DNA of 64,000 nt from Haliotis asinina (taxonomy: Eukaryota), in NCBI RefSeq assembly GCF_037392515.1, contig NC_090294.1, positions 7,457,870 through 7,521,869 on the forward strand, given 5' to 3'. The notes below the pieces were generated by a model. The model searched no databases. It was not told where the DNA came from and was given only the letters and a program-made list of their open reading frames with translations. This document shows, piece after piece, positions 29,211 to 39,830 of this stretch (position 1 is its first letter; every line of letters begins with the position of its first letter). The position numbers were made by a program, and so were the translations under genes.

Positions 29211-29560
29211 GGGAAAAATTAATCTGTCATACACAGACAAGAGCATTCCTGAACCAAACAAAAGCATTCCTTAGGAGCACAAAAAAAATTCCTTAAGGAG
29301 CGTAGGAGCAGCCTTAGGGGTCAAAAGAAATTCCTATAGGAGCGTAGGAGCAACCGTAGGGGTCAAAAGAAATTCCTATAGGAGCGTAGGAGCAACCTTA
29401 GGGGTCAAAGGAAATTCCTATAGGAACGTAGGAGCAACCTTAGGGGTCAAAAGAAATTATTATATGTGCTCCCAGGTGCATACAGGTTCGCTATCTCACA
29501 TTCCATAGGTGTCACATTTAGACAATACACATTTCTTCTATACAATATCAAATTCTTATA
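29211..29560. repeat. Polinton left TIR with 4 copies of a ~42-bp subterminal repeat (ccttaggggtcaaaagaaattcctataggagcgtaggagcaa)
   Basis: Reverse-complement match to 39620-39830, and the tandem copies at 29267-29452 are visible. Confidence 0.8.
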
Positions 29561-32402
29561 GTTTTCTTTGTTTTATATTATAAACAAATATAAACTATTC
29601 AAGTTGTTTTACACTCCATTTAATCATGTTCACTTCAAAACAGTTTTACATGTAGACAAGAGACACGTAATTATGCGGTGAAAGGGTTAATCGCACTTAT
29701 TCACCACATGCGACAAACTCTCCAGTGTACACTCGAACACCATGTTTACATAACAATAAAATGTAGGTCGCCTCATCCCGCTTCGCGTTTCATACACAGT
29801 ATAGTTATAATCTACCTCCCTAGTAGTGCATGAAATTCAAACACAAAGTACTAGTATACTACAACAGTGAGTTGAATTCAAGTCATAATGTAGGATATCT
29901 CGTCTTGCATACTCATACTTAGAACAGTTTACTAGAACAGTGAGGTAAATTCAGCATTAATCATTCAGTTTGATTTACACTCCTAGTCGTGCTTATTTAA
30001 CACAGCCAAGTACATTCAAACCCCATGCTGTCATCACATGCTTTCATAACGTATATAATGAAAATCGCTTTGTCACTCATACAGAGTATCGTTATATAAT
30101 GTTTGCTTGCTAGCAGTTCAAACATCCATTTTTAGAACTCTTAAACTGGGTCAGCTGACTCTATGTATATATTTTTCAAAAGTAGACTGCAAAGTAAATA
30201 GGGTCTATGCGATACAGGGAGTGAATTGAAAGAAGTGTAAATATCCGATAATTACTGAACCGAAAACGATACTTGCAAAGTCCTTGACATTGATAAAAAG
30301 TTCATCACTTTTAGTTACTGCTTTCATAGAAAAGAAAACAAATGATTGTTGCTTAATAAACATATTATAATTTTACCCACATTGAATGCAAACATAGGCA
30401 TGACAAATCCAGCATCAATACCAAAAATCTCATTCTCTTTATCCAATCAATCCAGTCACTGCAGATCAAATCCCTTTTCGTGGACGAACAAGTATGTACT
30501 TGTAGAAAAACAATCAGATAAAAGATAATAGCAGTTATGTTGTTTTACTCAACTAAAAACCACAGTGACAAGAGAAAGAGAGATTCATCAGCTTGTGTGA
30601 ACCAGCAGGCAATGTCAGCTTGGTATTGAAATGTTATCATAAAGTATACAAGCTTATGATAACGTATCCTGTTAACTTAATGTTCACATGACTATTATAA
30701 TGAAACAACCATAACTGAGAGATGATATAACAAAATGTAGAAAGTAGAAACCCTTTTGTTCTTCCCATCTTTAACAGAAAAATCGTCCTCCTGATGGGAA
30801 ACATCCATCTCCTCCTCCTGATGAGAACATTCCATTCCCTCCTCCTCATGGGAACATCCACGTCCCTCCTTCTCCTCCTCCTCCTAATAGACACACCAAC
30901 TCCCTCCTCTCTTGATGGGAACATCCACGTCCCTCCTTCTCCTCCTCCTCCTAACAGACACACCAACTCCCTCCTCTCTTGGTGGGAACATCCACCCTCT
31001 ACACACTTACATATGCATACTCTGAGGACTGAAGTAAACCTAAGTCTTTAAAGGTCACATGCAACCAAAACATCAAACATAATTAAACATATTTATCACT
31101 TATTCATGACATATAATATACATTGCTGCTTTTAAAAAAACGAATAAACAAAATTATAAGCGTACAATCGCGATTCAAAAGTGCAATATTTTGTACTTGG
31201 GCTTACTTCCCCCGAAACTAAGCCCTCGGGAGACCGAACCCAGTCGTAGCGGGTGGATCTGCACTCAAGTGTAACGACGGCTTCCGATTGGCTGTTTCAT
31301 TTGCTGATATGCTGAGGGTTCATTGTGTGTACAGAAAGATGATCTGTTTGATGGGCATTTTAGAACTTCTTCTATTGTACTTGATGCGTCGTTTCAGTAT
31401 GGATTCATATACTGTACATATACTGTCAAACAAAACATCATATACACTAAAAGAAGTTGTTATCCATGAAGAATGTATATTGAGATGTTAGGTTTTGAAA
31501 ATACATGTTCTCTGAATTTGAGCTCGATCCAATAAAAAATCATCTCAGTAGAGATGGCAAACTACTGCGTGGCTGGAATCTGTCATTCGTCCAACTACAA
31601 AGCAGGACTTGAAACTGACAAGAGTTTGCACCAGGTTCCGTCAGATCCACTCATCCGAAAAAAATGAATGTAGTTTGTTTGCAACCCACAGGCATAAGCA
31701 CATGTCATGTGTATCAGACCTGCCTAATTACATAATGTGGCAGAGACGGGAGTCGGATGCACGAGTCATACATCAGTTTATTTTCTTAATGTCGTATTGT
31801 CTGATAGGTGTTAAGTTCAAATTGCACGTGGTCAGTGATTGAAGCTGTGTACTGCATGTTGTCTTTAGCAGACAGGCAGGCAGACATATAGGTGTGAATA
31901 AACCAGACACTGAGCTTTCTCTGAGAGACTGCTTACCACAATCAACATGTTTTTTTACGTAACGAGTAGATTATTTACTTGTTTTTGTACACAACCAAGA
32001 TTAGTCTAATGCTCACAACCTCAGACTCCGGACATGCATACTGTTTCAAGCTCCGCGAACTTATTCACTGCACATGCGGTATGGACGCAGCGCAGCACAG
32101 CTGTTGCTCACTGGTATCTAGCAAAGAAACAGTTTTATGCTTTCCTGCTTAGAGAAAGGACATATTGTTGAACCATGAGGACAAATTCAACAAATGATAT
32201 ACTTGGACCTATATCATCACAGAGAAGAGCAAAATCATGTAAAAGAGCATCACTGATGAAAAGAAAAGACAATTTAATCTACAAGAAAAAGAAGAGGAAC
32301 ATGAGAGGCAAGATAGGAACAAAGCCTCCACAGAAAATACAGCACGAGCCAAAACTAAATTGAAATGAGCTCAACCAAAATTGATACATAACTAGATGGT
32401 TA

Positions 32403-32645
32403 GTGGGTATAAAAGACTGCTTCATACTCAAATACCTGCTCATTTCTACCATGGAAATGATCACCTGTCCTGAATGTGGTGAGACATTTACAAGAACCGA
32501 TAACCTACGGAGACATCTGAAGCAATTTCATAGGTCAACACAATTCTTAACTCCTCCGCCTACTCCTAATGGCAGCATAAACACTCCTCCTCCTGATCAG
32601 AACACTCAGCCTCCTCCTCCCCCTAAGAATGTATGCTCACAGTAA
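32403..32645 (+). CDS. Small ORF with a C2H2-type zinc-finger-like motif (CPECGETFTRTDNLRRHLKQFH) and a Pro-rich tail, inside the Polinton
   Basis: Cys2-His2 spacing is visible in the translation. Its function and authenticity are unknown. Confidence 0.3.
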   Translation: MGIKDCFILKYLLISTMEMITCPECGETFTRTDNLRRHLKQFHRSTQFLTPPPTPNGSINTPPPDQNTQPPPPPKNVCSQ

Positions 32646-32649
32646 AAGA

Positions 32650-33350
32650 AAGAATTCAAATTTGTAATTCCTTCAAATGTTCTTGTTGTTGGACCAAGCT
32701 GTTGTGGGAAATCAATGTTCACATATCATCTTCTACGAGATGGTTGGATTGAACCTCCCCCAGATCGTGTTGTTTGGTGTTATATGCAATGGCAACCCTT
32801 ATATCTATAACTATTTTTGAACAACTACCCCAAAAAGTTACTTTTGTCAAAGACCTACCCTATGATATCACTGATGAAAACTACTTTGATGCAAATTTGG
32901 GGAATGTTTTGGTATTGGACGATTTTTTTGGGTCAATCAAATGTTGACAAGAAAATATCTAAACTGTTCACTCAAACTTCTCATCATAAGAATTATGATT
33001 CTTCTTCTTGTTTGCAAGAGGACGAGAATCCAGAGACATTGCACTGGACGCTCATTATGTCACCCTGTTTTATTCACCAATTGACAAACAACAAATTAAA
33101 CTTTTTGCTCGTACAATCTTTCCTGAAAATATGGATTACTATTTGTCTATGTATGAAAAGATTACAGAAAAGCCATATGGTCAGCTTGTCATTGATTTAA
33201 AACATACCACAAAAGACAGGGACCGACTGCATGTGAACATCATTAAAGAAACAGATGAGGGAGCAAATGCTCAGTGTGAACGTGAACAGCCTAGGAAGCA
33301 GATCATTGTCAGTCTCAGTCAGCAAAACAAGAGCCTCATTTGATAAACCT
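32650..33350 (+). pseudogene. Polinton packaging ATPase (FtsK/HerA-A32/IVa2-like), frameshifted
   Basis: Walker A (VLVVGPSCCGKSMFTY) and Walker B (NVLVLDDFFG) are present. A C-terminal block …YVTLFYSPIDKQQIKLFARTIFPENMDYYLSMYEKITEKPYGQLVIDLKHTTKDRDRLHVNI… is also present. The pieces lie in at least two frames. Confidence 0.65.
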
Positions 33351-38815: not shown

Positions 38816-38919
38816 CTACGAACAAAAAGAAAGGAAAAAGATATGAATATAAAAACAAAATTGATATTGCAAATTAAGTAGGTAGAACGCTGTCGCATGT
38901 AACACAAATATTCACTTAC

Positions 38920-39350
38920 CTTGCTTTCTTGATACCCTGCTTCTTTGAAGTATCCCCCTTCTTTGATTTCTTCACCACTGGTTTAAACAGATCATCCTCC
39001 ATTGTTTTTCTTCTTCTCTTCTTTTTCTGAAGAACAGATATTTCCTGAACCGTTCCGCTCTCTGAAGTTCGGTCTTGAGCAGCAGCATAGGAGAAAGATC
39101 CTATGAGATCAGTGTAATCCGTCAACCATTTCAAGAAAGGGGATGACATTTGTTGAAGCTTCCCTTCTCGGGCTTTAGTCTTCTCCAGCATGTCTGTGTA
39201 ATTGGTTTTGTACAACACATTCGATCTCATCATAATTTCATGCAGATAGAGTTGAGTATCCAGAATATCCTTCACTTTCAGAAATGTGTCGTTAAATGTC
39301 TCCACTGACGAAAGAGCAACACATTTCACATCCACACTTTCCTGCGTCAT
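38920..39350 (-). CDS. Unknown Polinton protein, exon 1 (MTQESVDVKCVALSSVETFNDTFLKVKDILDTQLYLHEIMMRSN…KKKRRRKTMEDDLFKPVVKKSKKGDTSKKQGIKKA-)
   Basis: The open frame on the minus strand ends at a consensus donor (aag|gtaagtg, 38919-38913). It contains a basic NLS-like stretch. Confidence 0.45.
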
Positions 39351-39619
39351 GGTGAATATGTAAGAGATGGACGATTTTCAGCACCTTCTTGCTCCAAGTT
39401 GGTGATAAAACTGATTTGAAATAGCTAAAACGTTAGAGGTTTCAGACAAAACTGTGCGGAAGGAAGTTTTGATTGGATGCTGAGTAATACACATTTAGTT
39501 TGATTGGCTAAGAGATATGGAATGATAGGAATTTGTGAAATAGTGATTGAAATAGATGCGTATTTAAAAAAGCTATGTCATTATTCCGTTTTAAATATAT
39601 TAAGATAAGAATTTGGTAT

Positions 39620-39830
39620 GTATAGAATCTTTTCAATTTAGTATTGTGTAGAAGGAATGTGTATTGTCTAAATGTCACACCTATGGAATGTGAGTTAGCG
39701 AACCTACCTGTATGCACCTGGGGGCACCTGTAGGAATGTCTTTTGTCCTCCTAAGGTTGCTCCTACGCTCCTTAAGGAATTTCCTTTGTCCTCAATGTTT
39801 TTGTCTGTGTATGACAGATTAATGTTTCCT
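39620..39830. repeat. Polinton right TIR
   Basis: The reverse complement of 39658-39745 matches 29440-29525 (…gtgtattgtctaaatgt(c/g)acacctatggaatgtgag…), and the terminal 30 bp match the left terminus. Confidence 0.8.

Follow-up and report, generated by a model that had tools for sequence, protein, structure and literature searches.

In a 64,000-nt stretch of the genome of the abalone Haliotis asinina (contig NC_090294.1, forward-strand positions 7,457,870 to 7,521,869; this whole stretch is the window, and positions are given in its coordinates), a segment of approximately 10.6 kb flanked by inverted termini (~29207-39831) is very probably a dead, mosaic, polymerase-less copy of a Maverick/Polinton (adintovirus-like) element. 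Polintons encode the polymerase that copies them and the integrase by which they insert; these self-synthesising transposons were reportedly described, as Polinton/Maverick, by Kapitonov and Jurka in 2006 and by Pritham et al. in 2007. The genes of the segment converge, with the place of the polymerase empty, an ATPase gene on the plus strand and, facing it on the minus strand, genes for a BIR protein, a protease, a capsid protein, a putative penton protein and an integrase. The segment resembles Polinton/Maverick elements in its long terminal inverted repeats (TIRs) starting with AG, its integrase with chromodomain, double jelly-roll capsid, putative penton, adenain-like protease and A32/FtsK-type ATPase, and differs from them in the lack of a protein-primed B-family DNA polymerase (PolB), the small size of 10.6 kb, the lack of a 6-bp target-site duplication (TSD), the breakage of all of its genes and the origin of its arms in two lineages. 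The element is a mosaic as judged from sequence comparison, its plus-strand ATPase arm belonging to a Polinton lineage other than that of the capsid arm. Its anatomy and homologies, the absence of PolB from the window and the presence of PolB in the relatives are direct observations. An initial annotation made from the sequence alone had proposed a Maverick/Polinton-like element without polymerase in an intron of an SLC23 gene, and the gene set, long TIRs, lack of PolB and position were all verified.

The closest relative of the window element is a Haliotis rubra locus (L001, QXJH01001429.1), which aligned with the window at 85.4% over 3.0 kb and at 89.8% over 1.5 kb (window 39792-36826 and 36570-35069, respectively). 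L001 shares with the window the terminus GAGTAGG... and the gene order orf106, orf163, integrase, orf144, capsid, protease and BIR; unlike the window copy, it carries an intact protease, a 226-aa (amino acid) ATPase on the capsid strand, three more open reading frames (ORFs), PolB on the opposite strand and two long interspersed element (LINE) insertions. Its flanks do not match those of the window, so that it lies at a different genomic site and was rejected as an orthologous insertion. A more distant abalone relative, L002 of H. rufescens, is an intact Polinton with genes for a NADAR-domain protein, an integrase (rve and Chromo), a 142-aa ORF, the capsid, a 164-aa protease, further ORFs and a 233-aa ATPase (Pox_A32), and with a 1,394-aa polymerase on the other strand; the apparent NADAR-domain gene lies near its left end (L002 6601-7188, Pfam E 1e-44). 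Intact relatives thus encode PolB, rve integrase, double jelly-roll capsid, penton, adenain-like protease and A32/FtsK-type ATPase between long TIRs, and the relatives with a protein-primed PolB span more than 16 kb. Two metagenomic Polintons (L036 and L044) are arranged as PolB and ATPase facing protease, capsid, penton and integrase, an order that the window copy repeats except for PolB, whereas in a complete Polinton-like contig from IMG/VR (L007) all genes lie on one strand. L036, L044 and L007 encode proteins with homologues in the window and in its abalone relatives; these three elements differ from the window copy in having PolB and in an ATPase without zinc finger.

The inverted repeats at the ends of the segment are far above chance. 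An inverted-repeat search found outermost arms of 36 nt at 29212-29247 and 39794-39829 (92% identity) and a second arm pair of 71 nt at 29484-29554 and 39635-39705 (also 92%), and blastn aligned 29406-29554 with 39788-39635 at 86% (E 2e-41), the inner ~150 nt being 86-88% identical. From end-to-end alignment, together with the repeat search and blastn on the left side, the left TIR was placed at 29207-29558 (~352 nt) and the right TIR at 39635-39831 (~197 nt), neither with an assigned strand. The two differ in length because a 42-bp subterminal tandem repeat is present in 4.3 copies at the left end (29280-29458, 93% matches) and as one unit at the right, in agreement with the TIRs of 200-350 bp with 42-bp subterminal repeats that had been proposed. 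Comparison with L001 fixed the left terminus at 29206/29207, where GAGTAGG... is common to the left ends of both elements, and the outermost 4-6 nt of the right TIR have diverged from the left end. The long TIRs with 5'-AG termini (AGTAGG... at the left, as in L001) are a Polinton trait. The bounds first given thus hold as to the inverted termini, and the left start at 29211 does not, the true end lying 4-5 nt farther out. No TSD of 6 bp or any other length was found under any boundary choice tried: the left flank reads CTACTG or CTGAGT and the right flank TTGGAA, TGGAAT or GAATTC, which do not match. Because a TSD is undetectable, transposition of the 10.6-kb unit as such is not shown.

Gene assignment required intact relatives, because frameshifts hide most of the genes from six-frame Pfam scans: all ORFs of the element are disrupted, and a scan of the raw element returned only BIR, zf-C2H2 and weak rve matches. 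The profile searches envisaged at first recovered the integrase weakly and missed protease, ATPase and capsid; the accompanying statement that most ORFs are frameshifted agrees with the stops or frameshifts seen in all remaining genes. The capsid-side arm was mapped by tblastn of the L001 and L002 proteins on the window, and these proteins fell collinearly on the minus strand at 34532-39350. Outermost are two small ORFs (38430-39350, minus strand; an orf106-like ORF at 39350-39034 and an orf163-like ORF at 38907-38430) with 67-85% identity to L001 in tblastn and no significant match in a Pfam search. Next to them is an rve-family integrase gene with a decayed C-terminal chromodomain (37064-38210, minus strand), 73-91% identical to the L001 integrase in tblastn. 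The reading frame changes three times or more and contains several stops, yet the DDE residues can still be made out. The stitched protein matched Pfam rve at E 1.4e-6 (28.9 bits, slightly under the cut-off of 32.6), and the intact L002 homologue matched rve (E 1.7e-10) and Chromo (E 8.7e-7) above cut-off, so that the predicted integrase with chromodomain, another Polinton trait, could be substantiated. The adjoining putative minor capsid (penton) gene (36826-37064, minus strand) is 89% identical to L001 orf144, its N-terminal ~80 aa being recognizable and the remainder frameshifted; orf144 in turn matches both ends of a 255-aa ORF located between the integrase and capsid genes of L007 (E 1e-7 and 1e-5).

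The gene at 35310-36637 (minus strand), annotated elsewhere as 'F54H12.2-like', was identified by its fold as encoding the double jelly-roll major capsid protein typical of Polintons, and it is the capsid-like ORF that had been noticed from the sequence. It contains one frameshift and three in-frame stops. Polinton capsid genes have been described before (Krupovic et al. 2014, PMC4028283). A capsid protein on record for H. asinina, P0002, shows 89% identity, and many capsid-gene copies of this Polinton family exist in abalone genomes; annotated capsid proteins of more than 62% identity numbered only two. The gene offers an annotation example, as the 'F54H12.2-like' proteins of molluscs are Polinton double jelly-roll capsid proteins.

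Downstream of the capsid gene, an adenain-like cysteine protease survives only as its N-terminal half (aa 1-84; 35059-35310, minus strand; 83% identity to the L001 protease), in which the His and Asp residues are retained and the portion with Gln and Cys is deleted. The intact homologues show His56/Asp71/Gln100/Cys107 with adenain-like spacing; Peptidase_C5 is the top Pfam match of the L001 and L002 proteases at sub-threshold level (E 0.008-0.017), and the L007 protease, with which that of L001 aligned at E 2e-18, scored 22.0 bits against Peptidase_C5, above the cut-off of 21.3. The catalytic spacing, the top C5 match and the homology to the C5-passing L007 protease make the protease adenain-like, so this Polinton trait is present by transitive homology; the protease that had been proposed is thus correct in identity and reduced to half. 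Joined in frame to this stub, and forming one fused ORF with it, are the C-terminal 59 aa of a packaging ATPase of the type found in L001 and L002 (termed A-type here; 34927-35103, minus strand; tblastn against L001 ATPase aa 167-225, 47%, E 2e-10). The innermost gene of this arm encodes BIR (inhibitor-of-apoptosis) repeats (34532-34856, minus strand; Pfam BIR E 5e-15 and 3.6e-13); it is broken by a stop and a frameshift and is 69% identical to the BIR gene of L001. A BIR gene is carried by this Polinton subfamily (window 34532-34856, L001 12606-12932).

A different identity was considered for this gene set, namely a Ginger-type or other cut-and-paste DNA transposon in which a Gypsy-like integrase is combined with a protease domain. 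Ginger1 elements, according to Bao et al. in 2010, are said to have TIRs, an rve integrase with chromodomain and a cysteine protease, all of which recur here. Ginger1 has a single transposase gene, in which the Gypsy-like integrase is fused to an OTU/ULP protease, lacks capsid and ATPase genes and makes a 4-bp TSD, whereas the window segment has a double jelly-roll capsid gene, an A32-type ATPase and a separate adenain-like protease gene, and its relatives carry PolB. The capsid fold and the gene set of the relatives refute the Ginger-type reading, to which we attach practically no probability.

The plus-strand arm of the Polinton copy consists mainly of a second ATPase pseudogene, termed B-type (32451-33867), which encodes a C2H2 zinc finger (zf-C2H2, Pfam E 4.5e-6), a proline-rich linker, an A32/FtsK-type ATPase and a C-terminal CxxC extension with the motif CxxC...H...C, and which is interrupted by several frameshifts and a single in-frame stop. 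The plus strand contains both Walker A (GPSCCGKS) and Walker B (VLVLDD), and homologous ATPases match Pox_A32 and Adeno_IVa2 above cut-off, which upholds the proposed Walker A/B packaging ATPase and adds the A32-like ATPase to the Polinton traits present. The B-type homologues are P0121 (69-73% identity), P0122 (560 aa) and P0125 (516 aa), and in the latter two the zinc finger, linker, ATPase and C-terminal region form a single protein of 516-560 aa. B-type and A-type (L001/L002) ATPases are only ~30-38% identical; the element therefore combines what is left of two ATPases, each from its own lineage and on its own strand. The ATPase is followed by the C-terminal remnant of a small ORF (33923-34081, plus strand; ...ISLY..G..KLGPPG) that resembles L001 orf193b and whose counterpart is kept after the ATPase in L003, a short zinc-finger-ATPase contig.

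The architecture of the B-type ATPase deserves separate mention. In one Polinton lineage the ATPase is preceded in the same protein by a C2H2 zinc finger at the N-terminus and a proline-rich linker and is prolonged by a C-terminal extension of ~250 aa, and an ATPase with zinc finger recurs in several metagenome contigs (loci L012, L014, L018, L020, L021, L029, L032 and L034). We know of no description of such a zinc-finger/packaging-ATPase fusion. L003 comes from SRR5986942, and the same gene occurs in GCA_002753775.1. Non-coding DNA of L003 (2503-2850) is 78-95% identical to that of L002 (20924-21300), so that abalone-like genomes, too, contain the lineage with the zinc-finger ATPase.

Two stretches of the element have no assigned content or strand. 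The 450-nt junction between the plus- and minus-strand arms (34082-34531) matched none of the compared loci, and the weak matches that orf255m and a protease C-terminus gave at 34176-34490 do not exceed chance level (E 0.05-0.13 over 27 queries) and were rejected. The 2.9-kb stretch at 29559-32450 occupies the place where PolB sits in relatives of the same layout and shows no coding signal. It gave no Pfam match in six frames, no Rfam or tRNA match, no tblastn match to 27 Polinton proteins, no match to a PolB hidden Markov model (HMM), no self-similarity within the window and no blastn or tblastx match to 87 compared loci; its sole feature is a 27/67-bp tandem repeat at 30786-30995, which is proline-codon-like and resembles the proline-rich linker.

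The two dissimilar arms raise the question whether the segment is one element at all. It could instead result from two partial insertions, from a nested insertion with deletions or from an assembly chimera of repeats, as an A-type capsid arm (34532-39831) and a B-type ATPase arm (29207-34081) with one TIR each. Such a composite origin fits the two oppositely oriented ATPase remnants with their differing lineages, the missing TSD, the unassignable junction at 34082-34531 and the unequal TIR lengths. On the other side, the TIRs agree at 86-92% in their inner parts, as the ends of a single family should, a convergent gene order occurs naturally in Polintons, and neither host-like sequence nor a second TIR pair was found inside the segment. 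A single element is favored because the TIRs match and the convergent layout is natural, and we rate the composite origin as rather unlikely. Within the mosaic Polinton copy that we prefer, a cleanly transposed unit is disfavored because the TSD is missing and a vestigial second ATPase is present; the mosaic may go back to lineages that recombined before the element was inserted, to rearrangement once it was in place, to two separate insertions or to misassembly.

No trace of PolB was detected in the whole 64-kb window, where four tblastn queries gave a best E of 0.6 and a small HMM a best E of 2.7, in accord with the absence of polymerase noted initially. The protein-primed B-family polymerase of Polintons is thus missing from this copy, so that its remaining genes and its homology to PolB-bearing copies carry the Polinton assignment. 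PolB genes are present in the relatives L001, L002, L007 and L044, those of L001 and L002 encoding proteins of 1,100-1,400 aa. The relatives' polymerases show the motifs ExoI (DFE), ExoII (HN..YD), ExoIII (Y...D), A (DFNSLY), B (KLMNNCVFG), C (DTDS) and KxY in canonical order, and that of L002 is 33% identical to that of L007 over 1,156 aa. They are likely PolB, to judge by these motifs, by their size and position and by their homology to the IMG/VR element; a BLASTP comparison with the phi29 polymerase aligned motifs B and C only and was not significant. An Endonuclease VII/HNH-like insert occurs between ExoI and ExoII in the abalone and IMG/VR Polinton polymerases (PF02945, E 5e-5; PHROG endonuclease VII, E 8e-8; in L002 14923-19107, aa 664-701, and L007 2085-5558, aa 371-418), and these proteins have no DNA_pol_B_2 match.

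Since its closest relative keeps PolB, the window copy most likely lost its polymerase and does not stand for a polymerase-less lineage. The initial annotation had left open a deletion derivative or such a lineage; with PolB in L001 and L002 the former is favored, in the modified form of a replacement and mosaic rather than a clean deletion, and most likely, then, the copy is a deletion/replacement derivative. Lineage-wide absence of PolB is found in Polinton-like viruses (PLVs) without integrase or PolB, which often have a primase-helicase instead and exist as free viral genomes. The window element differs from PLVs in that its closest relatives carry PolB, and a six-frame Pfam search of the window returned neither a primase nor a helicase domain.

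A family that lives without a polymerase was nevertheless weighed, i.e., a transposition-competent, non-autonomous ('satellite') Polinton family that would retain its capsid and integrase genes and be replicated in trans by autonomous relatives, and whose 10.6-kb unit would have been inserted as such. The matching TIRs at both ends, a layout equal to the convergent Polinton layout minus PolB and the conservation of the zinc-finger ATPase arm at the protein level in other abalone-like contigs speak for it, but the unit lacks a TSD, every gene including the integrase is broken, the leftover of a second ATPase is joined to half of a protease gene, and the closest relative has PolB. The finding of only two annotated capsid proteins above 62% identity is also contrary to a large young family. 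We regard such a family as highly unlikely, and slightly less probable still is the specific form in which a zinc-finger ATPase was swapped in and the family is mobilised in trans by autonomous abalone Polintons; if it did exist, it would correspond, in an animal, to a virophage-like element that parasitises another parasite.

Three points weigh against a dead Polinton copy that lost its polymerase. With no TSD at its ends, the 10.6-kb unit does not demonstrably owe its position to an integrase; Pfam, PHROG and PDB profiles do not recognize the polymerase domain in the relatives' proteins; and the right arm of L001 is interrupted by a LINE and leaves the compared locus, so that the true counterpart of 29559-32450 lies outside the comparison.

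The dead Polinton copy might have arisen through recombination between Polinton lineages, loss of the PolB region (the left TIR and the ATPase now being separated by 2.9 kb that could not be assigned), an internal deletion that fused the protease to the A-type ATPase, and decay by stops and frameshifts in every remaining gene, although these events may have occurred in another order. The copy cannot replicate, integrate or form particles by itself and is most likely inert intronic DNA. Incomplete Polinton copies are commonplace (e.g., PMC3014272), and defective, rearranged ones are expected wherever the family was active. This copy is real but ordinary, and nothing in it departs from known Polinton biology. 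Its two ATPase types would record recombination between Polinton lineages. Adintoviruses (Starrett et al. 2021, PMC8502044) are animal-associated and Polinton-like, with genes for PolB, integrase, adenain, a packaging ATPase and capsid proteins of hexon-like and penton-like type; they were defined from apparently free or intact genomes, whereas the window holds a decayed endogenous copy without PolB. Homologues of IAP (inhibitor of apoptosis) and Bcl2 have been reported as accessory genes in adintoviruses (PMC8502044), and the BIR gene of the window agrees with the former.

The host gene belongs to the SLC23 family and is transcribed from the plus strand, antisense to the capsid arm. Its ATG exon (27982-28127) ends at the donor cag|gtatgt, with gtatgt at 28128, and the next exon (41523-41678; acceptor cag|CAC) was recognized by tblastn (E 9e-8) and by Xan_ur_permease (E 5e-4). 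The downstream exons match Pfam Xan_ur_permease collinearly at E 1e-9 to 2e-18. The intron between the two exons (28128-41522, 13.4 kb) encloses the element and is the first coding intron, as the proposed intron 1 of ~13 kb in an SLC23 gene had implied. The insertion in this intron is a marker that could be scored across Haliotis species.

Elsewhere in the window, an upstream host gene on the plus strand (4638-9963) encodes RRM domains (RRM_1 E 1.6e-20 at 5651-5890); it was likened by eye to the splicing factor PUF60, which we presume it to resemble. Remnants of two other DNA transposons are a Tc1/Tc3-type transposase at 14538-15289 (minus strand; HTH_Tnp_Tc3_2, E 5e-9) and a MULE transposase domain at 18050-18451 (plus strand; E 7e-7). 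Satellite-like arrays are located at 19093-19930 (55 bp x 15, 98%), 56729-57899 (51 bp x 23, 90%) and 60696-62479 (57 bp x 31, 97%), and the 620-codon open frames in the last of these are artefacts of the repeat.

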